A stretch of 37,657 nt of DNA, from the IMG/VR virus record IMGVR_UViG_2516143071_000007. One strand, written 5' to 3'. This document shows, in pieces, positions 2,023 to 26,715 of this stretch. Origin of the DNA: a virus. Taxonomy: Duplodnaviria > Heunggongvirae > Uroviricota > Caudoviricetes. Below the pieces are notes generated by a model. It was not told where the DNA came from and made no database searches. It worked only from the letters and a program-made list of their open reading frames with translations. Position 1 is the stretch's first letter. Each line of letters opens with the position of its first letter. Both the position numbers and the translations under genes were made by a program.

Positions 2023-2301
2023 ATGACAAAGCTCTTGAACACATACGAGCAAGCGGATTTTGAGCGTTTGGCGGCGTTCTACCCATACCGCGATGAGCAT
2101 GGATTACCGGTACTCGAAGAAAGCCTGAAAGATTACGCGAAGCGTACCAATCAAACTGTTAATGCAGTGAAAAGGCAGGCTGACAGAGCAGCCCTTCCCA
2201 TCAACCAAGAAGAAAAAAACTCAAAACGTACAGTAAATCTCTTCGCAATTTTCCTGAAAACCATCAGAAACGCAGAGAAATACGTGCAGATGACAAAATA
2301 A
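2023..2301 (+). CDS. Cox/Apl-position early protein (putative excision/switch regulator), 92 aa
   Basis: First gene of rightward early operon divergent from repressor; assignment by position only, no sequence similarity to P2 Cox recognised. Confidence 0.45.
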   Translation: MTKLLNTYEQADFERLAAFYPYRDEHGLPVLEESLKDYAKRTNQTVNAVKRQADRAALPINQEEKNSKRTVNLFAIFLKTIRNAEKYVQMTK

Positions 2302-2315
2302 CGAGGTGTCATTTT

Positions 2316-2654
2316 ATGCTGAAGCAACGCCGTAATTTTCGTACCGGAACAGAACGCCACGCTAACCATTTCGCTACCAACGCATCACGCAGCAACATCC
2401 GCTACAGCCTGAGCGAGACGCACGCAACACCTGATGGCCACACAGTAAAACAAATTGGCGAACACACCTGGCTAATTGAAAAAGCTGGAATCGTGGTTCA
2501 CAGATGCCCACGCAATCCGTTTACCGGAAATCGCATTTTTGCACTAAGCAGCGGCGACAATCAGTTCGGGCAGGATTTCACATTATACGAAGCACTACGC
2601 ACGGTTGATCGTCTGCTTCGCGGACAAAGTTTTATTAAACAGGCTGATTTATAA
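2316..2654 (+). CDS. Hypothetical early protein, 112 aa
   Basis: ORF with GAGGTG Shine-Dalgarno upstream of ATG. Confidence 0.5.
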   Translation: MLKQRRNFRTGTERHANHFATNASRSNIRYSLSETHATPDGHTVKQIGEHTWLIEKAGIVVHRCPRNPFTGNRIFALSSGDNQFGQDFTLYEALRTVDRLLRGQSFIKQADL

Positions 2655-2664
2655 CAGGTGCTTT

Positions 2665-2952
2665 ATGACCAAAGAGCATGCACAAGGTGTATTTATCCGT
2701 TTTATTGATTTTCGCGGTGAACTGTTATTACGCGCATCCGCTATTGATGGAGTGGCTCCGGCGGGTAAAAACGGAGTCGACGAAGCCACTTACGTTTATC
2801 TGAACGGCACGCGACTGCTTGTGGAACTTCCGTACCAGACCGTACGAGAAATCATTAGCGAAGCTGAAAAGGCACGCCAGGTTAATGGCGATAAACCCTA
2901 TATCGAAATTATCTGCATAGATTCAGAAGCTGAAATTCAGAAAGCAGATTAA
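2665..2952 (+). CDS. Hypothetical early protein, 95 aa
   Basis: ATG at 2665 preceded by AGGTG; the ORF-track 5' extension overlaps the previous gene. Confidence 0.5.
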   Translation: MTKEHAQGVFIRFIDFRGELLLRASAIDGVAPAGKNGVDEATYVYLNGTRLLVELPYQTVREIISEAEKARQVNGDKPYIEIICIDSEAEIQKAD

Positions 2953-2963
2953 AGGGCGTTGCG

Positions 2964-3206
2964 ATGGGCAAAGAATATAAAACTCTCATTAACAAAGCAC
3001 TTGAGCGTTTTTATTTTCGCTTAAGTGCATCAGGCGCTCATGCTGAACGTGCAGCCCGTGACTCATTGACCAGGGCAATCCGGAGTCTGTATGACGTGGC
3101 TTTTTACGCTGATGATCTGGATGCACTTAACGAACTTTCCGAGCTGATCTGTGCCGCAGAATGCGGGGAACATATTGAACCGTATAAGCTGGGGAATATC
3201 GCATGA
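2964..3206 (+). CDS. Hypothetical early protein, 80 aa
   Basis: ORF in early operon, compact spacing. Confidence 0.5.
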   Translation: MGKEYKTLINKALERFYFRLSASGAHAERAARDSLTRAIRSLYDVAFYADDLDALNELSELICAAECGEHIEPYKLGNIA

Positions 3207-3316
3207 GTATATTTATCTCATGGCTTGTTCTGATTATTTCGGTGGCCTGCGCCATTGGGATTATGCGAATTATTCATTCAGTGAAAAAGATTGAACGTTA
3301 TTTCCCTGACGAATAA
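3203..3316 (+). CDS. Small hydrophobic peptide, 37 aa (MSIFISWLVLIISVACAIGIM...)
   Basis: ATG overlaps the upstream stop (ATGA); one predicted TM helix; below the ORF-track size cutoff. Confidence 0.35.
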   Translation: MSIFISWLVLIISVACAIGIMRIIHSVKKIERYFPDE

Positions 3317-3404
3317 CAGCACAAACAAAACACCAGATTAAATAAGAAAACGTGAAAACATCTGCATTAGCGGAGGGATTCACACATTTAAAGAAGGGGT
3401 GACA

Positions 3405-3725
3405 ATGAATAAGAATGCAAAAATCATCAAAATTCACGAAAGAATATTAATAATTCTCAAGCACCTCCACGATGATGAACTGGATGAGGCACTACTCGTC
3501 GCTATTGAACTCACCAAAAACCTTGTTGACGGAACCTGCCCGGAACATAAACCAGGCCTGTTTATGGTACTGCTGACAGCGAAAGCTCTGTTAGAGGAGC
3601 TCTCATCGACCATCAACTCGCTTCTCACCGAAATAGACGAACTACACGACCACATTGAAGGACTGGAAATTCAGCTATCTCGCGTTCGTCGTCAGAAACA
3701 GAGCGGTGAGCGCAATGGCAATTAA
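3405..3725 (+). CDS. Hypothetical early protein, about 106 aa
   Basis: ATG at 3405 preceded by AAGAAGGGG; acidic and coiled-coil-like. Confidence 0.5.
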   Translation: MNKNAKIIKIHERILIILKHLHDDELDEALLVAIELTKNLVDGTCPEHKPGLFMVLLTAKALLEELSSTINSLLTEIDELHDHIEGLEIQLSRVRRQKQSGERNGN

Positions 3726-3918
3726 GCGTTTTTCCGTCATTCGTTTCACCTCCAGAGGGCGTGAATACGAAATTGACGAACGGCTGATTAAAACGCTCGA
3801 CCGTCACCGTTCGCAACCTGACGCGCATCACATTTATCTCACTGACGACACTTACTTCTGCGCCACCAACGTGGTGCAGGTAAATCTTATCAGACAGGTA
3901 CAGGAGTCACGCAAATGA
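3715..3918 (+). CDS. Hypothetical early protein, about 67 aa
   Basis: Start at internal ATG (MAIKRFSV) overlapping the upstream gene end; GGTGAG upstream. Confidence 0.4.
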   Translation: MAIKRFSVIRFTSRGREYEIDERLIKTLDRHRSQPDAHHIYLTDDTYFCATNVVQVNLIRQVQESRK

Positions 3919-4160
3919 CCATTCTGGACTACATCGCCGCCAATCCGGGTTGTAGCGGTAGCGAAATCGCCACAGCACTGAATACCCCAACCACAGCCAT
4001 TAATTCGGAGTTACGCCGACTCTGGCGCGACGGCTTAGTCATCAGAGAAGAACGCAAAACAGGCGGTCGGTTCTCTTACCTGGTAAACCCGATGCCGTTC
4101 GGGTGTGGCAACCCACTTACTCACATGTTTAACCAGCTACTGAAGGAAGCCAGAGCATGA
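3915..4160 (+). CDS. Small winged-helix-like DNA-binding protein, 81 aa
   Basis: Pattern GSEIATALNTPTTAINSELRRLWRDGLV resembles MarR/wHTH recognition helix-wing; CAGGAG Shine-Dalgarno; ATGA coupling. Confidence 0.5.
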   Translation: MTILDYIAANPGCSGSEIATALNTPTTAINSELRRLWRDGLVIREERKTGGRFSYLVNPMPFGCGNPLTHMFNQLLKEARA

Positions 4161-4456
4161 GCACCATCAACCACCAGAAGCTACGCGAACTGGCATTTGC
4201 CCTGCAACGAATGGCAACGCCTCAAAAATTACTGGCATTTCGCGCAATGCTCTCGCCGTCTGCCGTGCTGGCACTGCTGGATGAGCTGGAGCACGCCAGA
4301 ACCACGGCTCCTGCCATTCGCCTGACGCTCCATCATGAAATCGCTGATTTCTGCGCGACGTTGAAGGCGCCAGGCGAACCGGAAACACCGGAAGCAATAC
4401 AGCAAGAGCTGCTGCAACGCATTGACAAGGTTTTTGATTTTTTTCTGAACCAGTAA
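4157..4456 (+). CDS. Hypothetical early protein, 99 aa
   Basis: ORF coupled to the upstream gene (ATGA overlap). Confidence 0.5.
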   Translation: MSTINHQKLRELAFALQRMATPQKLLAFRAMLSPSAVLALLDELEHARTTAPAIRLTLHHEIADFCATLKAPGEPETPEAIQQELLQRIDKVFDFFLNQ

Positions 4457-4559
4457 GAAACCAGAACATGCACACACAAAAAAACCGCTTGCCATGCCGC
4501 AATCAGTCAGGTTACATTTCCGCTGCACCTCATAAAACGGGTGCCGGGATTTCCACCCC

Positions 4560-4770
4560 GCTGACTATACACGCGCACAACCGCGCCAGCGGTTTTTTTG
4601 TGCGTACCGCATCGCCACGTCTTTTTCGCACACGAATTATGGTGGGGCGTATGGGGCCGACTTTGGTCGGGCCGGGTTCGTGTATAGCCGGTTGTGGAAA
4701 CCCTGTACGTCTCACCACCCCGAGTTTTCCACCTCTGGATGGTGAGTTTTCAAAACTTACTATACACGAG
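4560..4770. promoter_or_regulatory. Three copies of CTATACACG in a 320-bp noncoding gap upstream of the replication operon
   Basis: ACTATACACG at 4564-4573 and 4759-4768 (plus), CTATACACG inverted at 4679-4687; no plausible ORF with a ribosome-binding site in the gap. Confidence 0.4.
4579..4600 (+). terminator. Rho-independent terminator candidate
   Basis: AACCGC-GCCA-GCGGTT stem-loop followed by TTTTTTT. Confidence 0.5.
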
Positions 4771-4778
4771 GCCACACC

Positions 4779-5009
4779 ATGGCAAACCGCAAACAACAGC
4801 GCGCATACGCTGCGCGTCGTCACATCCAGACTGAAATCAACCGCAGACTTTACCGCGCATCACGCGTCGCGCAAATCATGCACATCAATATGCTGCATGA
4901 GCGCAGCCACGCACTATCAAACATTTATTCCGCCTCTGTTTTCAGCTATCTGGCGGATGATCTGCACGAGCTTCAACAGCTCATCCAGCAGCAAAACAAA
5001 CTCCATTAA
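4779..5009 (+). CDS. Hypothetical protein, 76 aa
   Basis: ORF immediately after the third CTATACACG site; weak GAGG upstream. Confidence 0.4.
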   Translation: MANRKQQRAYAARRHIQTEINRRLYRASRVAQIMHINMLHERSHALSNIYSASVFSYLADDLHELQQLIQQQNKLH

Positions 5010-5081
5010 TTCCTGTTCCGGGCCTTTCCTGCACCTTGCGGCGGGAGGCCTTCGCACATCTGTAGTAAAGAGAATTGCAGC

Positions 5082-5471
5082 ATGATTGACGCTCATGACT
5101 TCACAAGATGGGTGCGCACACAGGACACCCGTCTGGCTCCCGTTCTTCAGGGGTTATTTGATCTCTACATCCGTGGTCGTGACAACAGAGCACGCACCAC
5201 AAAACCGGAGAATGCAGACACCCTTTATTTCACAGTAGACGACTGCTACCGCGTGGACTTCACACCACACGGACTGGCGTTGCACTGCCTGACACCGCAC
5301 GGCGAATCACTGCTGGCGTATTACGACTCCCCGGCCTCCGTATTTGCAGCAATGCTGGCGCATCGCACTGCTGGCGGGTGTGCCTCGCTGAGTGAATACA
5401 CCGCTGAATTTAACCGCCTTTCCGCCCTCTTCTCGCAGGAGTGGCAGCGCGTGACGGGATACCAGCCATGA
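5082..5471 (+). CDS. Hypothetical protein, 129 aa, coupled to replication gene A (P2 B position)
   Basis: Stop overlaps A start in ATGA; no motif recognised. Confidence 0.5.
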   Translation: MIDAHDFTRWVRTQDTRLAPVLQGLFDLYIRGRDNRARTTKPENADTLYFTVDDCYRVDFTPHGLALHCLTPHGESLLAYYDSPASVFAAMLAHRTAGGCASLSEYTAEFNRLSALFSQEWQRVTGYQP

Positions 5472-8308
5472 GTGCGTTTGCATGGAGCTGGAATGAACCA
5501 CGACCAGCTATTGATCCGGCCAGATTTACGGAGCACAGGCAGGAAACTGAAACCGACCTGCAACGCGCCATCCGTTACTACCTTGAGGCGGACAAAAGGG
5601 CACAGGAAGAACAGGAAGCGAAGAAAGAAGCCTTTTTCGCACAATCCGCCATGGGTAAAAAACTCATGGCATCCCTTGAGGAAGCCGGACAGCGTGAGAA
5701 GCTGGCACAGAGCATCATCAGTAAGCGCCGGGCAACAGAACAAGACCCGGTAGCCCGTGCCTTTGCCACACTGAAGGCGCTTCCCGTTTATCTGCGAGAA
5801 CCTCTGAGCCGCCACCTCTCTTTCCTGCGCAAGAAGCAGGAAGCCGATCGTCAGAAAGGCAAAAAGAGCTGGCAGGCGGAACGCTATGCACGCGGAACCC
5901 TGCGCAAAATATTCGAACGTCTGGATCGCACTGACGGGCGCTGGCTGACACCTGGTTATCGCTCCCTTGCCGGACGCGAACGCCTGGACGATTTGCTTTA
6001 CCTGCCGCAGCTCAACAAACACCAGATACAGACGCTGGCCACCATGACGGCGGCGATGTTCAGCAGCACCTTCGAAAAACTCTGCGATGGCTTTGGCGCG
6101 ACCGATGGCGAGCTGACCATGGATGTAACGCTGAAGACGTATCAGATGCTGGCCCGCATGGCGTTACACCTGCACGCCATGCCTCCACATTATGACGCAC
6201 TGACAACAGACAAAGACCGGAGGAACGAACCAGACACGGAGCTGCTGCCGGGCGCAATCCTTCGCCTGACCTGTGCGGAATGGTGGAAACGCAAACTGTG
6301 GCTGTTACGTTGCGAGTGGAGAGAAGAACAACTCCGCGCCGCCTGTCTGGTTTCCAGAAAAACATCACCCTATCTGAGCCAGGACGCGTTAAGCGAGTTT
6401 CGCGCACAGCGCGAGAAAACACGCGATTTCCTGAAAAGTTTCATGCTGGAAAACGAAGACGGGTTCACGATTGATCTCGAGACAGTGTATTACGCGGGAG
6501 TAAGTAACCCGGTTCACCGTAAGGCAGAAATGATGGCCACCATGAAGGGACTGGAACTTCTGGCCGAAGCCCGTGGCGACAGAGCGGTGTTTCTGACTGT
6601 CACCTGCCCGTCAAAATACCACGCAACAACGGAGAACGGTCATCCGAACCCTAAATGGAACGGGGCCACCATGCGCGACTCCAGCGATTACCTGGTTAAC
6701 ACGTTTTTTGCGGCGGTCCGCAAAAAACTGAACCGCGACGGTCTGCGCTGGTATGGCATCCGCACGGTGGAGCCTCACCATGACGGCACTGTGCACTGGC
6801 ATATGATGGTCTTTGCTCATCCGGAAGAAATCGACAGCATCGTGGCCATCACCCGCGATATTGCCATTCAGGAAGACCGCCACGAGCTGGGCAATGATAT
6901 TACTCCGCGCTTTAAGGTGGAGTATGTCGACGGCTCAAAAGGCACACCAACCAGCTACATCGCCACCTACATCGGAAAGAACCTGGACAGCCGCGCCGTG
7001 GATGGCATCGACCCGAAAACGGGCAAGCCACGCGTTGACCACGAAACCGGAAAATCAATGGCCGAGAGCGTGGAACGCGCCATCGGCTGGGCGCGCCTTC
7101 ACCGGGTCCGCCAGTTCCAGTTCTTTGGTATCCCCTCCCGTCAGGTGTGGCGTGAACTGCGCCGCCTTGCCAGCCAGATGGCACGCAACCCGGAAGGCCC
7201 GCAACGGCTGAAGGATGACGCAATGGACGCGGTACTCGCTGCCGCTGATGCCGGATGTTTTGCCACCTACATTGAGAAACAGGGTGGCGTACTTGTTCCA
7301 CGCAAAGACTACCTGATTCGCACCGCCTACGACCTCGCAGATGAGCTGAACGATTACGGTGAACAGAGCGTACAGATTTACGGGATCTGGTCGCCGCTCA
7401 TTGGGGAGTCTTCCCGCGTATGCACGCATCCGGATAACTGGAAGCTGGTAAGACGCAAACCGGAAGCGGAAGACAGCGCCCGCGAAAATGGTTTTGACCT
7501 TCAGGGCGGCCCTGCCGCCCCTTGGACTCGTGGCAATAACTGTCCCCGTGTACAGGAAACGGACAACAACGGGACAGAACAGCCGGAAGAACGGCCAGCA
7601 CCGTGGCCGCAGCTCCCTGACGGCGTTGATGTGGATGAATGGATGCGCTCACTGAAACGGCACGAACGCCGGGCGCTGATGCGTTCGCTTCGTGACAAAC
7701 AGGCAAAAAACAGCAGTGATGAAATGCAGAGCTGGACACAGAGCCGCAAACAGCAGCGGCCTTTGCCTGATAACCACGAATTACTCGCTAAAGAATGGCG
7801 GGAGTCTGCTGAATCTCTCGGCCTGCATATCGGTGAACAACAGATGCAGCACCTGTTACGGGGCGGCAGTCTGTACGTTGACGGCAGCATCATTGCACCG
7901 CAGGGATTTGAAATTGTACGCAAACCGGATACCCGCCCGGACAGCCGAATCACGCAGCTCTGGCAGCGCCTGAGCCGTAATCATGGCGTAAGCAGCACGG
8001 AGATCCGCCATAACCCGGTCGCCAGCTATCTGACACAGCTGGGGGCATCAGACCCTGAAGCCGCCGCACGCCTGGCATCCACACTTCAGCAGGACCAGAA
8101 CACCATGAAAACACCCGTTACCGTGCTTTCTGACATGCTGCGCGCCATCCGCGACGCAGAGCACGCACAGAGAATCAGTGAAACCACTGAACGCGCCCGC
8201 CGCAAAGCAGACCTGCTGCGGGGTGGCCTGACCAGTGGAAACAAAAAACAGACAGAAACGGGACTCACGAATCCCGTAAATGAGCAAAAAACGCGCAGCG
8301 ATATATGA
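5468..8308 (+). CDS. A: Rolling-circle replication initiator/endonuclease, P2 gpA family
   Basis: HUH motif HWHMMVF and paired tyrosines YIATYIGKN; start at ATG overlapping upstream stop; long C-terminal extension relative to P2 A as I recall it. Confidence 0.85.
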   Translation: MSAFAWSWNEPRPAIDPARFTEHRQETETDLQRAIRYYLEADKRAQEEQEAKKEAFFAQSAMGKKLMASLEEAGQREKLAQSIISKRRATEQDPVARAFATLKALPVYLREPLSRHLSFLRKKQEADRQKGKKSWQAERYARGTLRKIFERLDRTDGRWLTPGYRSLAGRERLDDLLYLPQLNKHQIQTLATMTAAMFSSTFEKLCDGFGATDGELTMDVTLKTYQMLARMALHLHAMPPHYDALTTDKDRRNEPDTELLPGAILRLTCAEWWKRKLWLLRCEWREEQLRAACLVSRKTSPYLSQDALSEFRAQREKTRDFLKSFMLENEDGFTIDLETVYYAGVSNPVHRKAEMMATMKGLELLAEARGDRAVFLTVTCPSKYHATTENGHPNPKWNGATMRDSSDYLVNTFFAAVRKKLNRDGLRWYGIRTVEPHHDGTVHWHMMVFAHPEEIDSIVAITRDIAIQEDRHELGNDITPRFKVEYVDGSKGTPTSYIATYIGKNLDSRAVDGIDPKTGKPRVDHETGKSMAESVERAIGWARLHRVRQFQFFGIPSRQVWRELRRLASQMARNPEGPQRLKDDAMDAVLAAADAGCFATYIEKQGGVLVPRKDYLIRTAYDLADELNDYGEQSVQIYGIWSPLIGESSRVCTHPDNWKLVRRKPEAEDSARENGFDLQGGPAAPWTRGNNCPRVQETDNNGTEQPEERPAPWPQLPDGVDVDEWMRSLKRHERRALMRSLRDKQAKNSSDEMQSWTQSRKQQRPLPDNHELLAKEWRESAESLGLHIGEQQMQHLLRGGSLYVDGSIIAPQGFEIVRKPDTRPDSRITQLWQRLSRNHGVSSTEIRHNPVASYLTQLGASDPEAAARLASTLQQDQNTMKTPVTVLSDMLRAIRDAEHAQRISETTERARRKADLLRGGLTSGNKKQTETGLTNPVNEQKTRSDI

Positions 8309-8384: not shown

Positions 8385-9344
8385 ATGAAAATTTGTATCG
8401 ACGACGGCTCCACCAACATCAAGCTGGCATGGACTGAGAACGGCGAACGCCGCAACGCCATCAGCCCGAACAGCTTCAAGTCGGAATGGTCTGCGCCGTT
8501 CGGTGGCACGCAGCCCGCGAACTACATGCTTGATGGCGTGCGCTATGGTTTTGATCCGGTCAGCGATCGCTTTGTCCAGACGACCGACACGCAATACCAA
8601 TACAGCGATGTGAATGTCATTGCCATTCATCACGCGCTGGTCAAATCAGGCATCACACCACAGGAGGTGGATGTGGTTGTCACCCTGCCACTGAGCGAGT
8701 ATTTCGACACAAACGCACAGCCGGACATGACCAATATCAACCGCAAAAAAGCGAACGTTATGCGCCCGGTGGAGTACCAGAACGGCGAAGCATTCACTAT
8801 CCGTAACGTACGGGTTATGCCTGAATCCATTCCGGCTGGCTTTAAGGCACTGGCTGACATGAGTCCGTTTGAATCCCTGCTGATTGTGGATTTGGGCGGA
8901 ACCACGCTGGATGTGGCAAAGGTTCAGGGGCAACTGGCAGGTATCAGCCAGGTGTTTTGCGATCCACACGTAGGCGTTTCTCTGATGGCCGATGCCGTAC
9001 TGTCGGTGATGGCCACTAACGGTATGCGCACCAGTCACCACATCGCCAATACCATTATCGAACATCGCCATGATGAAGCCTGGCTGCGCCAGCACATCCA
9101 CAATGACGCGCATTACGCCAGCCTGATGGCGGTTATTCGTGAAAAGGAAGAAACACTGAAACAACGCGTGATCCGCGCGCTGGCGGGTTTTTCGGGTTAC
9201 GGGCGGGTGATGGTTGTCGGTGGTGGGACGGAGATTGTGGCACCCGCTATCCGCGAAGCCTGCGGAGTTAATGCGACTTTCATCGCGGACGGGGTGCCAC
9301 AGTTTGCTCTGGTTAATGGGCTGTACGCAATGGACAAGGAGTAA
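8385..9344 (+). CDS. parM: Actin-like segregation ATPase, ParM/StbA family
   Basis: N-terminal IDDGSTNIKL, SPNSF, YSDVNV, VMPESIPAG, DLGGTTLD, SGY..VMV(V/I)GGG blocks match my recollection of plasmid R1 ParM along the whole length. Confidence 0.8.
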   Translation: MKICIDDGSTNIKLAWTENGERRNAISPNSFKSEWSAPFGGTQPANYMLDGVRYGFDPVSDRFVQTTDTQYQYSDVNVIAIHHALVKSGITPQEVDVVVTLPLSEYFDTNAQPDMTNINRKKANVMRPVEYQNGEAFTIRNVRVMPESIPAGFKALADMSPFESLLIVDLGGTTLDVAKVQGQLAGISQVFCDPHVGVSLMADAVLSVMATNGMRTSHHIANTIIEHRHDEAWLRQHIHNDAHYASLMAVIREKEETLKQRVIRALAGFSGYGRVMVVGGGTEIVAPAIREACGVNATFIADGVPQFALVNGLYAMDKE

Positions 9345-24004: not shown

Positions 24005-26137
24005 ATGAGTACCACAACACGAAAATTTAAAACCGTTATCACCGATACAGGTGCCCAAAAATTAGCTCAGGCAGCCGCGCCAGATGGTAAGCCTGTCCGC
24101 CTGACTCATATGGCCGTGGGCGACGGTGGCGGCGCGTTGCCCACACCAGACAGTAAGCAGACCCGTCTGGTGCATGAGGTGTGGCGACACACTGTTAATC
24201 GCGTCATCCTGGACGCAACACATCAGAACCGCATTATTGCGGAGCTGGTTATTCCTCCAGAAACGGGCGGATTCTGGATCCGGGAAATTGGTGTGTTTGA
24301 TGAGCACGGCGATTTAATCGCGGTGGGCAATACTGCCGAAAGTTACAAGCCAGCCGTTGCCGAAGGGTCCGGACGTGCACAAACATTTCGCACCATTCTG
24401 ACCGTATCCAGCACTGCCACTGTGGCGCTTACCGTGGATAACACCATGGTTATGGCCACAGTGGATTACGTGAATGACAAACTGAAAGAACATGAACAGT
24501 CACGACATCACCCGGACGCCTCGCTGACCGCAAAAGGCTTTGTTCAACTCAGTAGCGCCACTAACAGCGATTCTGAAACGCTGGCTGCAACGCCGAAAGC
24601 GGTTAAGGCAGCGTATGACATGGCTAACGGAAAATATACCGCTCAGGACGCCACTACGGCACAAAAAGGGATAGTCCAGCTCAGCAGTGCAACCAACAGT
24701 ACATCTGAAACGCTGGCGGCAACATCAAATGCAGTAAAAGCTGCCTATGACAATGCTGAAAAACGTCTGCAGAAAGCTAAGAATGGTGAGGATATCTCTG
24801 ATAAAGACACCTTTACGAAAAATATCGGTGCCTGCCGTGCATATAGTGCAGAGCTGAATATTGGTGGAGATAGTGAAGCATGGACAACTGCGCAGTTGAT
24901 TTTTTGGCTAGAGAGTCAGGGGGCATTTAACCATCCTTACTGGATGTGCAAAGGCTCATGGGCTTATGCAAATAATAAGGTCATTACAGATACAGGTTGC
25001 GGAAGTATTTGTCTTGCAGGTGCTGTTGTGGAAGTTATTGGCACCCGCGGCGCAATGACCATACGCATTACCACACCGAGTACATCCAGCGGTGAAGGCA
25101 TCCCTAATGCTCAATTTACTTATATTAATCATGGTGATGCTTATGCTCCTGGCTGGCGAAGGGACTATAACTCCAGGAATAAGCCAACAGCATCAGAGAT
25201 CGGGGCGTTACCGTCAGATGGGACAGCAGTATCGTCAGTTAATCTGGCTTCAAAAGGTCGGCTGACCGCCCTGACAGATAATATGCAGGGGGCCACAGGT
25301 CTGGAGTTATACGAGGCGTATAACAACGGATATCCAACAACGTATGGAAATATCATTCACCTGAAAGGGATGACAGCCGTTGGCGAAGGCGAATTACTCA
25401 TCGGCTGGAGTGGTATAAGCGGTGCTCATGCTCCGGCATTTATTCGTTCACGACGGGATACGACCGACGCAAACTGGTCGCCGTGGGCGCAGCTTTACAC
25501 CTCGGCTCATCCTCCTGAAGAGTTTTATCCAGTCGGTGCACCGATTCCGTGGCCATCAGATACCGTTCCGTCTGGTTATGCCCTGATGCAGGGGCAGACT
25601 TTTGACAAATCTGCATACCCGAAACTTGCAGTCGCTTATCCGTCAGGCGTGATCCCTGATATGCGTGGCTGGACTATCAAGGGCAAACCTGCCAGTGGTC
25701 GTGCCGTATTGTCTCAGGAACAGGACGGCATTAAATCGCACACCCACAGCGCCAGCGCATCCAGTACTGATTTGGGGACGAAAACCACATCGTCGTTTGA
25801 TTACGGTACTAAAACGACCAGTTCATTTGATTACGGCACAAAAACTACGAATAGCGCTGGAAATCATTCACACAATATACCTGTTGGTCACACTGGCGCG
25901 GGGAATGGTGTATCAGCCGGTTTTAACGCTGCGTTAGGTACTGGTACCACGTCGAGCGCAGGCGGGCATGCTCACAATGTATATATCGGTGCCCATAACC
26001 ACACTATCGGCATTGGTGCTCATGCCCATTCTGTCATTATTGGTCCCCACGGACACACCATCACCGTTAACGCTACGGGTAACGAAGAAAACACCGTAAA
26101 AAACATCGCATTTAACTATATTGTGAGGCTTGCATAA
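24005..26137 (+). CDS. H: Tail fibre protein, P2 gpH family with divergent C-terminal receptor-binding region
   Basis: Two copies of the phage-fibre repeat [23 protein letters not shown]; His-rich C-terminal repeats ([34 protein letters not shown]). Confidence 0.85.
25775..25852 (+). repeat. In-frame 30-bp tandem repeat inside H encoding [10 protein letters not shown] about 2.6 times
   Basis: Units at 25775-25804 and 25805-25834 plus a partial third; the units differ at several synonymous positions. Confidence 0.7.
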
Positions 26138-26715
26138 TGACATTCAGAATGAGTGAACAATCACGGACCATAAAAATTTATAATCTACTGGCTGGAACCA
26201 ATGAGTTTATTGGTGAAGGTGATGCATACATTCCACCTCATACAGGTCTGCCTGCAAACAGTACCGATATTGCCCCGCCAGATATTCCGGCTGGCTTCGT
26301 GGCCGTTTTCAACAGTGATGAGGCATCGTGGAATCTCGTTGAAGACCATCGGGGAAAAACCGTCTATGACGTGGCTTCCGGCGACGCGTTATTTATTTCT
26401 GAACTTGGCCCATTACCGGAAAATGTCACCTGGTTATCCCCGGAAGGGGAGTTTCAGAAGTGGAACGGCACAGCCTGGGTGAAAGATGCAGAAGCAGAAA
26501 AACTGTTCCGGATCCGGAAGGCGGAAGAAACAAAAAACAGCCTGATGCAGATGGCCAGTGAGCATATTGCGCCACTTCAGGATGCCGTAGATTTGGATAT
26601 TGCGACGGAGGAAGAGGCATCGTTACTGACTGCATGGAAGACATATCGGGTATTGTTGAATCGTGTTGATACAACAGTAGCATCGGATGTTGAGTGGCCA
26701 GTCGCCCCGCAATAA
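26137..26715 (+). CDS. G: Tail fibre assembly chaperone, P2 gpG / Tfa family
   Basis: Follows H with TAATG overlap; 192 aa; Tfa-like N-terminus ([30 protein letters not shown]). Confidence 0.8.

Follow-up and report, generated by a model that had tools for sequence, protein, structure and literature searches.

The IMG/VR record IMGVR_UViG_2516143071_000007 is a stretch of 37,657 nucleotides of viral DNA (hereafter the window), the whole of which is a P2-family prophage with the gene order integrase, repressor, cox-position gene, ten small open reading frames (ORFs) and replication gene A. The eighth and ninth of the small ORFs (4157-4456 and 4779-5009) are separated by a gap of 322 bp (4457-4778), and we consider it quite likely that this gap is an RNA immunity cassette of the P4/P1 type that gates an epsilon-like gene and the replication genes. 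This assignment is based on full-length Rfam matches within the gap, a layout shared with P4 and P1, co-variation of the pairing sites among relatives, the presence of a gene of the Derepression family directly downstream and the similarity of the resident repressor to P2 C. The kind of system is known, consisting of C4/CI antisense immunity, an IsrK/seqA partner and an anti-repressor as the output, and what is apparently new is the phage group in which it is found.

RNAs and pairing sites of the gap

An initial annotation of this DNA, made from the sequence alone, described a noncoding island of about 320 bp with a terminator and three copies of CTATACACG, one of them inverted, and interpreted it as an internal regulated promoter of the replication operon. 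All of the physical features were recovered: the terminator is a hairpin at 4579-4594 followed by seven T residues, and the window contains exactly three copies of CTATACACG, at 4565-4573 (+), 4679-4687 (-) and 4760-4768 (+), relative to a chance expectation of 0.10 copies and with none of 100 shuffles giving three. The third copy ends 10 nt 5' of the ATG at 4779. A second motif triple, overlooked in that annotation, is composed of TTTCCAC in two copies and its complement, GTGGAAA, in one. As described below, the three copies of CTATACACG are most likely one antisense element, in a loop of a C4 RNA, and the two RNA sites that it targets, and not protein-binding sites.

A scan with Rfam at the curated gathering thresholds gave two matches in the gap, both on the + strand, and a scan of the sub-region agreed (Table 1). 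The first is an IsrK-like RNA with the layout expected of that family of Hfq-binding RNAs: two hairpins at the 5' end are followed by a linker and an intrinsic terminator. The second is a C4/CI-type antisense RNA with a 17-bp closing stem, two hairpins and a 3' end of ...ACCACC. With regard to possible 5' processing by ribonuclease P, the visible features are this 3' ACCACC and the resemblance of the closing stem to a tRNA acceptor. When the C4 sequence was folded alone its minimum free energy (MFE) structure was identical to the consensus structure (-44.1 kcal/mol). The same two models matched the immunity region of P4, isrK at the seqA region with 60.8 bits and C4 at the CI RNA with 74.9 bits.

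Using the site names of the P1 GenBank record, the order of elements is a1-b1, C4 (b', a'), a2-b2 and ATG. The first copies of the two motifs are in the IsrK-like RNA, TTTCCAC (a1) in the loop of its second hairpin and CTATACACG (b1) in its single-stranded linker. Their complements are in the C4 RNA, where the loop of hairpin 2 is 12 nt in length (GUUCGUGUAUAG, 4676-4687) and contains the inverted CTATACACG, while GTGGAAA occupies the internal loop. The last copies, a2 and b2, lie between the C4 RNA and the epsilon-like gene, with b2 overlapping the Shine-Dalgarno sequence GAGG of that gene. Pairing of b' with b2 forms a helix of 11 bp that covers three of the four Shine-Dalgarno bases (G4768, A4769 and G4770). 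Since the same C4 nucleotides can pair with either a1b1 or a2b2, the two interactions are mutually exclusive, and their predicted energies are -34.0 and -32.7 kcal/mol, respectively. In the MFE fold of the unprocessed RNA (4525-4800) the C4 segment is paired with a2/b2.

The gap probably also has its own internal promoter, based on a consensus-like element (TTGCCA-18-TACATT) from which transcription would start at about 4525, the position that corresponds to position 1 of the isrK model. This element is kept in all relatives, even in those in which the sequence further 5' has been replaced. The initial proposal can thus be retained in part: that the gap is a regulatory node just 5' of the replication genes is supported, and an internal promoter is probable, but the copies of CTATACACG are poorly explained as operators.

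Table 1. Features of the early region of the prophage in the window
Feature	Positions	Strand	Basis or remark
Integrase	596-1720	-
P2 C-type immunity repressor, 103 residues	1620-1931	-	P2 C alignment; Pfam HTH_3; presumed target of the epsilon-like protein
Early-promoter-like site	1925-1954	+
cox-position gene	2023-2301		5' of the small ORFs
DUF4761-family small ORF	2316-2654	+	Pfam PF15958, 234.6 bits; phrog_2492
phrog_3800 small ORF	2665-2952	+	PHROG; no Pfam, NCBIfam or PADLOC match
DUF4754-family small ORF	2964-3206	+	Pfam PF15946, 181.7 bits
37-residue hydrophobic peptide, ATGA-coupled to ORF 2964-3206	3203-3316	+	RefSeq; 'membrane protein' in P88; no family match
phrog_26764 small ORF	3405-3725	+	PHROG
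phrog_3459 small ORF	3715-3918	+	PHROG
MarR-like winged-helix protein, 81 residues	3915-4160	+	Pfam MarR_2, 33.4 bits, and HTH_24, 30.9 bits; phrog_1687
phrog_4144 small ORF	4157-4456	+	Weak Ead/Ea22-like Pfam match, 22.7 bits, below cut-off of 27
Eta-like read-through ORF, 205 codons	4468-5085	+	Starts 12 nt past the stop of ORF 4157-4456
Candidate promoter PisrK, TTGCCA-18-TACATT	4489-4518	+	Consensus-like element; counterpart of P4 PLE and P1 P51
IsrK-like RNA	4525-4599	+	Rfam RF01394, full length, 63.5 bits (gathering 50); counterpart of P4 seqA region and P1 a1-b1 leader
a1 target, TTTCCAC, loop of IsrK hairpin 2	4550-4556	+	Complements a' 4694-4700
b1 target, first CTATACACG, IsrK linker	4565-4573	+	Complements C4 loop
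Intrinsic terminator of IsrK-like RNA, 6-bp GC-rich stem and T7	4579-4601 (hairpin 4579-4594)	+	Stem invariant in 33 relatives
C4/CI-type antisense RNA	4635-4722	+	Rfam RF01695, 76.5 bits (gathering 45), model 1-87 of 87, E 2e-13
b' antisense element with inverted CTATACACG (4679-4687), loop of C4 hairpin 2	4677-4687	+
a' antisense element, GTGGAAA, C4 internal loop	4694-4700	+
a2 target, TTTCCAC, 4 nt past C4 3' end	4726-4732	+	Position as P1 a2
b2 target, third CTATACACG and AG	4760-4771	+	Overlaps Shine-Dalgarno GAGG 4768-4771; 11-bp helix with C4 4677-4687
Epsilon-like 'derepression protein', 76 residues, first cistron under proposed C4 control	4779-5009	+	Pfam PF25738, 32.4 bits (cut-off 27)
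ORF129	5082-5471	+	phrog_3237; start in ATGA with Eta-like stop, stop in ATGA with gene A start
Replication gene A (P2/186 type), distal gene of gated unit	5468-8308	+	Pfam Phage_GPA, 434 bits

Co-variation and counterparts in other phages

To compare the cassette among relatives we used 80 loci from IMG/VR that have close relatives of the 76-residue epsilon-like protein, from which 33 distinct versions of 4520-4790 were aligned. Mean column identity was 88%, with the differences concentrated in the six a/b sites and the flanks conserved. There were 12 variants of the b' loop and five of a', together forming 14 combinations, and the targets in each sequence match its own C4 RNA. Pairing of a1b1 with a'b' was retained in 99.8% of cells, with 11 of 16 pairs changed on both sides and a covariation score of 0.693 (0.126 when shuffled); for a'b' with a2b2 the corresponding values were 96.8%, 10 of 18 pairs and 0.603 (0.128 when shuffled). 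When the partner column was slid by one to three positions, pairing fell to 29-57% of cells. Considered site by site, paired cells amounted to 99.6% for a1 (four of seven pairs changed on both sides), 100% for b1 (seven of nine), 100% for a2 (four of seven) and 94.8% for b2 (six pairs changed on both sides), and b2 overlaps the Shine-Dalgarno sequence in every relative. The scaffold in which these sites are set varies little: the 27 pairs of the internal helices of C4 are paired in 100% of the 33 sequences and almost invariant, with three compensatory pairs, hairpins 1 and 2 of the IsrK-like RNA are 85-88% paired, and the terminator stem does not vary at all. Sites that are hypervariable and nevertheless stay complementary indicate that RNA-RNA pairing is the property under selection.

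Three further types, with all four targets matched, were found at loci from Salmonella enterica, E. albertii and an assembly labelled Vagococcus, bringing the number of specificity types in the P88-like set to at least 17. The P4-like loci (n = 81) have 13 combinations of a' and b', and are combinatorially reshuffled in the same manner. Comparison of 81 P88-like with the 81 P4-like loci showed no b' loop, no a' element and no combination in common. One common a' element of the P4-like loci (TTTCCAC; L086-L165) is identical to the window's target and complementary to the window's a' (GTGGAAA), so two C4 RNAs of the different classes could pair over 7 nt, although this may be chance. Only five pairs of cassettes of one class were found in the same genome; three of these differed in type, and of the two identical pairs one represents overlapping contig ends and the other is a P4-like pair.

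One locus (L024, IMGVR_UViG_2582580934_000004, approximately 265-310) has a C4 with an insertion of 17 nt that is a second loop of another specificity type, in the arrangement GCCGG-ATTCTTTGCTCT-CCGGT-GTTCTTGTGTAG-CCGGT, and its Eta-like frame (described below) is still open. The appearance of this C4 is that of an intermediate in recombination between two types, with the exchange at the conserved CCGG stem.

The geometry of the six sites is the same in P4, which has an a-type site (GTGAGAA) in the loop of hairpin 2 and a b-type site (TTCACAGG) in the linker, with complements in CI and repeats of both downstream. In P4 the second downstream repeat adjoins the AGGAGG-ATG of kil, whereas here b2 adjoins the Shine-Dalgarno sequence of the epsilon-like gene. 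The genes that follow are epsilon, orf151 and alpha (replication) in P4, and the epsilon-like gene, ORF129 and gene A here. The two systems also differ, in that P4 is a satellite with the alpha primase while the window is a complete P2-family phage with gene A, and the epsilon-like gene is itself the first gated cistron, there being no kil. In addition, ORF129 is unrelated to orf151.

Similarly, the immI region of P1 and P7 (P51, a1 b1, c4, a2 b2, icd, ant) has a C4-family RNA with a 7-nt a1 and a b1 upstream of it. In P1 a2 is 4 nt past c4 and b2 ends 10 nt 5' of an ATG in a 'GAGGCC' context, and these spacings are the same here. Specificity differs between P1 and P7 through a' and b', with compensating changes in the targets. 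The output in P1 is an anti-repressor, as is presumed here, although the Ant family is unrelated to the epsilon-like family. Other differences from P1 are that the first cistron is epsilon-like and not Icd, that the a1b1 leader ends in an intrinsic terminator, predicted to give a discrete IsrK-like RNA, and that the cassette is situated inside the early lytic operon, 5' of a rolling-circle replication gene.

A third counterpart is the isrK-orf45(STnc1160)-anrP region of the Salmonella prophage Gifsy-1, in which IsrK is transcribed from a promoter of its own and its terminator is leaky (Hershko-Shalev et al., 2016, PMC4825925). Downstream is a processed and stable RNA, STnc1160, which those authors likened to P4 CI. 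The anti-repressor is kept untranslated in the read-through transcript, and the short IsrK activates it in trans (PMC4825925). The model proposed for Gifsy-1 relies on alternative mRNA structures and an upstream ORF, not on C4 antisense pairing, and no link to replication genes was described (PMC4825925). Gifsy-1 is also a lambdoid prophage and its anti-repressor is of another family.

In lambdoid phages both isrK and C4 reach gathering scores, and the module is located in the early operon, 5' of replication genes and genes resembling anti-repressors. The modules of mEp460, 1720a-02, Stx2a phages and Ss-VASD have nucleotide identities of approximately 68-75% to window 4526-4772 (about 74% for the Stx2a phages), and mEp460 and 1720a-02 have matched a1/b1 and a2/b2 sites with b2 adjoining the Shine-Dalgarno sequence. 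They differ from the window in having a kil-like first cistron and anti-repressors of the Rha/Ant type, and in belonging to another phage family. In Shigella phage Ss-VASD (L166) there is also an Rfam match to sRNA-Xcc1 (2824-2907, 79.6 bits, gathering 53), located between a regulator gene 3' of the isrK-C4 module and an annotated anti-repressor gene. Neither isrK nor C4 was detected by Rfam in the early regions of P2 and 186. In the literature IsrK/C4 has been equated with P4 seqA/CI, and such systems have been noted in P1, P7, N15 and lambdoid prophages (PMC3632133, PMC4825925); we found no description of an IsrK-C4 system in P2-family phages.

Downstream genes, the Eta-like frame and the prophage

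The first gene downstream of the cassette encodes a protein that aligns with P4 epsilon with 33% identity over 51 residues (E 4e-9) and is 19 residues shorter, and whose E. coli homologs carry the RefSeq name 'derepression protein'. It could not be aligned with P1 Icd or P4 Kil. The protein E (epsilon) of P4 is an anti-repressor that binds P2 C, and this binding is abolished by the T67I (sos) substitution in P2 C (PMC2995052). The repressor of the prophage has 37% identity to P2 C over 99 residues in an ungapped alignment (E 5e-25), with W64 and T67 conserved. By analogy with P4, the presumed target of the epsilon-like protein is this resident P2 C-type repressor.

A spacer of 72 nt (5010-5081) separates the epsilon-like gene from ORF129, for which there was no match to P4 orf151, in PDB or in PADLOC; a PDB sequence search with ORF129 and the epsilon-like protein gave nothing meaningful. 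Within the spacer, and inside the Eta-like frame, is a GC-rich inverted repeat (GGCCTTTCC...GGGAGGCC) that has no T-run. The epsilon-like gene is C-rich and G-poor, with a C/G ratio of 1.5-2.1 over 4700-5000 (78-nt windows) relative to a regional median of 1.09. This is the composition that would be expected of a Rho utilisation region, although it is suggestive only. Gene A, the last gene of the gated unit, has identities of 36% to 186 A and 31% to P2 A.

The 205-codon ORF that begins at 4468 contains the promoter-like element, both RNAs and all of the target sites. It shares sequence with the epsilon-like gene in another reading frame, and its TGA is inside the ATGA at the start of ORF129. 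That ATGA was located in 82 of 84 loci (none was located in L040), and a frame of 202-207 codons from an ATG to its TGA is open in 80 of the 82, with the ATG 57-60 nt 5' of the IsrK +1 position (31 nt in L024). In one further locus, L172, the frame has 246 codons from a more distant ATG, and in L037 it is broken. From isrK to b2 the frame is free of stops in 83 of 84 loci; in L060 it is restored jointly by +1 and +2 indels. Among 56 variants of the six hypervariable segments this frame is never interrupted by a stop, while both of the other frames often are.

The frame has a counterpart in P4 eta (8767-8168), which is about 200 codons in length and includes kil. The start of P4 eta forms an ATGA overlap with the gene before it, and the frame overlaps the start of epsilon. 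It also reads through seqA, CI and seqC, and its phase with respect to each of the two RNAs is the same as in the window. The two differ in that P4 eta contains kil in frame, whereas the Eta-like frame overlaps the epsilon-like gene out of frame. According to a summary in PMC10111431, translation of P4 eta from the upstream promoter prevents immunity-specific termination. We consider the question of whether the module is translated through the Eta-like frame to be evenly balanced, and we infer by analogy with P4 that such translation would override termination.

Public records place coding sequences (CDSs) over the RNA module. The positions concerned are 4468-5085 (+) and 4530-4823 (-) in the window, 4313-4930 in L002 and 5033-5221 (-) in L001; the PhiR44_2 record has a 205-residue CDS at this position and the P88 record a minus-strand CDS. 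Some of these CDSs are spurious or uninterpreted. The 'Ash protein family' of Pfam (PF10554) matches the conceptual translation of the isrK-C4 region, including the old 'cI protein' of P4 (59.7 bits), and this family may largely reflect conserved RNA sequence together with the eta frame.

Between the cox-position gene and gene A there are ten tightly packed ORFs on the + strand, with ATGA overlaps at 3203, 3915, 4157 and 5468, in agreement with the initial description of about ten small genes coupled in this way. A winged helix-turn-helix (wHTH) protein and a 37-residue membrane peptide, also noted there, were likewise recovered, the former by its Pfam matches and the latter by an N-terminal stretch that is hydrophobic as judged by eye. 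The view that these ORFs are novel did not hold, since eight of the ten could be placed in families of Pfam or PHROG, one carries the name 'derepression protein' and the repressor resembles P2 C. Of the eight ORFs of 2316-4456, seven (all but the 37-residue peptide) belong to families of unknown function. All eight of these ORFs are kept in P88-like phages. NCBIfam gave no match above its cut-offs, and PADLOC matched no defence model with any of the ten ORFs, only weak HTH-domain noise being seen for the wHTH protein. For the small ORFs upstream of the gap these searches gave no evidence either for or against roles in anti-defence or host takeover.

The initial annotation had stated that its proposal would be refuted if all of these ORFs could be assigned to known early genes of P2 and 186. 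A tblastn comparison of all ORFs with P2 and 186 (E<=0.01) gave matches for the repressor (to P2 C) and for gene A but for no other ORF, and adding the P4 regions to the comparison added only the epsilon-like gene. By this search the small early ORFs have no homologs in the canonical early operon of P2 and 186 (cox/apl, B, orf80-83, A; Tum), and no Tum-like unit was seen.

The segment 2316-5471 has 90-93% identity to Escherichia phages P88, Xuanwuvirus P884B11, PhiR44_2 and relatives, and is 100% identical to a prophage in the E. coli O104:H4 outbreak lineage, where the RefSeq annotation has exactly the same ten small genes and leaves both RNAs of the cassette unannotated. We assign the element to the P88-like prophages (Xuanwuvirus) and to the O104:H4 lineage of E. 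coli. Among complete E. coli genomes, 1,344 of 5,426 (about 25%) carry the cassette (island and epsilon-like gene), with up to four copies per genome. A single-protein scan with the epsilon-like protein led to the three species-level loci mentioned above, and the order epsilon-like gene, ORF of about 129 residues, gene A is also present in Salmonella and E. albertii. The third, L172 (NZ_JBQPOM010000071.1, labelled Vagococcus sp.), is a 226-kb contig with a 95%-identical P88-like cassette and gene A; an enterobacterial cassette in an assembly labelled as a Gram-positive 'Vagococcus' is probably contamination.

Three other features of the prophage were observed. Directly 3' of gene A in this integrated prophage is a gene for plasmid segregation of the ParM type (actin-like; 8385-9344, +) that matches Pfam StbA_N (274.8 bits) and the ParM C-terminal domain (228.4 bits) and is also annotated in PhiR44_2 and O104:H4. 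In the late region there is a full-length Rfam match to IS009 (26480-26678, +; 192.4 bits, gathering 117) around ORF 26137-26715. Beyond the integrase, at the edge of the prophage, an ORF of 138 residues (190-606, -) with no Pfam match could be cargo at the attachment-site end.

Alternative readings and proposed regulation

The three copies of CTATACACG might instead be DNA operators at an internal promoter of the replication operon, bound by the wHTH protein or the C repressor, as initially suggested. A promoter-like element within the gap, a wHTH gene just 5' of it and the occurrence of repeats in both orientations, as is typical of operators, are consistent with that suggestion. However, the sites are 50-250 nt 3' of the promoter-like element and not over it, the inverted copy corresponds exactly to the loop of a high-scoring C4 RNA, and there is a second, co-varying triple with the geometry of P1 and P4. 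In addition, the sites vary among near-identical relatives and stay complementary while doing so, including by G-U pairs in the target helices (for example in L009); since a G-U wobble keeps RNA pairing but not the identity of a DNA site, this argues strongly against protein operators. Identical variants of the wHTH protein also co-occur with two to three different site types, with no co-variation between the protein and the RNA types. Operators at this position are therefore extremely improbable, in our estimation the least probable of the explanations considered. The initial annotation had also stated that location of the sites within a conserved coding sequence would speak against its proposal, and formally they do lie within ORF 4468-5085; this arrangement is that of P4 eta, and it does not rescue the operator reading.

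That ORF raises the related possibility that the gap is protein-coding, with the ORF (a CDS in PhiR44_2, 'Ash family' elsewhere) as the functional product and the repeats as a by-product. In its favour, about 98% of relatives keep the frame open, stops are avoided in all hypervariable variants and there is a weak Pfam Phage_ASH match. On the other hand, co-variation of a reverse-complement repeat with two direct copies has no explanation at the level of a protein. The amino acid sequence differs from one specificity type to the next and has no significant similarity to P4 Eta, the ORF overlaps the well-supported epsilon-like gene in another frame, and the RNA models score far above their thresholds. 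Moreover, translation of the frame and function of the RNAs can coexist, as reported for P4 eta. We judge it highly unlikely that the protein is the principal product.

We place at a similarly low level the proposal that the cassette is mainly a weapon or shield in conflict between helper and satellite, in which C4 acts on P4-like satellites or the CI of a satellite acts on helper epsilon and A. Defence against satellites was proposed by Barquist et al. for prophage IsrK-C4 (PMC3632133), P4-like satellites carry a homologous cassette, and both classes of element diversify their types combinatorially. But the two classes have no type in common, so cross-repression by perfect pairing is not expected, and the window's type is present once per O104:H4 genome.

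A stronger candidate, though one we still regard as rather unlikely, keeps the same RNAs and makes replication the main output: pairing of C4 with nascent a1b1/a2b2 would cause premature termination and no gene A would be made, with the epsilon-like gene a passenger and control of its ribosome-binding site incidental. The cassette is directly 5' of the ATGA-coupled ORF129 and A, the layout equals that of P4 with epsilon, orf151 and alpha (replication) downstream, and the epsilon region is C-rich, G-poor and rut-like. Furthermore, expression of A in 186 needs translation of the upstream ORF, and a terminator acts if A is untranslated (record notes). Against this are the overlap of b2 with the Shine-Dalgarno sequence in every relative, as in P1 icd and P4 kil, the fact that in both of those genes the translational block is primary and termination follows, and the lack of any terminator-like structure on the + strand of 4779-5468. 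Because the translational block comes first and termination is its consequence, this explanation and an immunity cassette that gates the epsilon-like gene along with the replication genes differ in emphasis and are not mutually exclusive.

Several points weigh against the immunity cassette as we have described it. The promoter matches the consensus at only 9 of 12 positions. The Rfam c4-a1b1 family (RF03163) gave no match at E<=1 in 4400-5100; P4 itself, however, scores 44.1 bits on this model, under the gathering threshold of 46.7, and the a1/b1 function is present within the isrK match despite the missing c4-a1b1 match. The compared sequences are closely related, so the counts of changed pairs are not independent events. 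A scan for LexA boxes (CTGT-N8-ACAG, <=1 mismatch) gave 18 matches relative to 11.5 expected and none near the island or any regulatory region, so no SOS link was found and no DNA-damage trigger is seen. With respect to the Eta-like frame, ORF 4468-5085 scores only 23.2 bits on Phage_ASH, for which the cut-off is 26 and the P4 equivalent reaches 59.7, and its protein has no significant similarity to P4 Eta (E 0.25). Shuffling of synonymous codons indicates that the openness of the frame across the epsilon-like gene is not significant by itself (p ~0.35). Lastly, it is from other phages that Rho dependence, processing by ribonuclease P, the action of the IsrK-like RNA as a decoy and the target proposed for the epsilon-like protein are drawn.

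The mechanism that we propose for the immunity cassette starts from properties that the analysis itself shows, namely RNA family membership and structure, the six-site geometry, maintained pairing, occlusion of the Shine-Dalgarno sequence and the protein family assignments; its steps are modelled on P1 c4-icd-ant, P4 seqA-CI-seqC-kil-epsilon-alpha and Gifsy-1 isrK-anrP. The internal promoter would be active in the lysogen, with most transcripts ending at the IsrK terminator to give the short IsrK-like RNA, and read-through would produce a precursor that is processed to C4. By pairing with a2/b2, C4 would keep the epsilon-like gene from being translated, acting in trans and possibly also in cis, and the untranslated C-rich transcript might then be terminated by Rho 5' of ORF129 and gene A (polarity). 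C4 would thus be a second, type-specific layer of immunity over the anti-repressor and the replication genes. The IsrK-like RNA may compete for the same C4 nucleotides and so act as an anti-antisense decoy that relieves the block.

Transcripts from the early promoter Pe, which carry the ATG at 4468, would have a different fate. Translation of the Eta-like frame would override the RNA block, as P4 eta does on PLL transcripts, and may deliver ribosomes to ORF129 and A through ATGA coupling. The epsilon-like protein could then bind the P2 C-type repressor of its own phage or of related prophages and cause derepression.

P2, unlike P88, is not known to be inducible by mitomycin C. Induction of P88 by this agent has been reported (PMC5285337). 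As a tentative and rather doubtful extension of the above, the P2 C-type switch of P88-like phages, otherwise non-inducible, may have been made inducible by an RNA-gated, self-encoded epsilon. In the same speculative vein, the immunity-plus-epsilon block of P4 (eta, seqA, CI, seqC, epsilon) would be a direct loan from or to this helper-type lineage, and the hypervariable, recombining a/b sites would act together as a combinatorial 'immunity barcode' made of RNA, determining which of the P2-family prophages and satellites residing together can derepress or silence each other.

The specificity types described here, at least 17 in this set and 13 among P4-like loci, constitute a large collection of orthogonal antisense/target pairs that occurs naturally and is set in a scaffold with almost no variation, and it could serve the study or engineering of RNA-RNA specificity. 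For the phages themselves, the anti-repressor that P4 uses against its helper has a homolog inside helper-type phages, under what is probably the same RNA control, and the cassette is a candidate for how P88-type P2-family prophages get induced and exclude each other.

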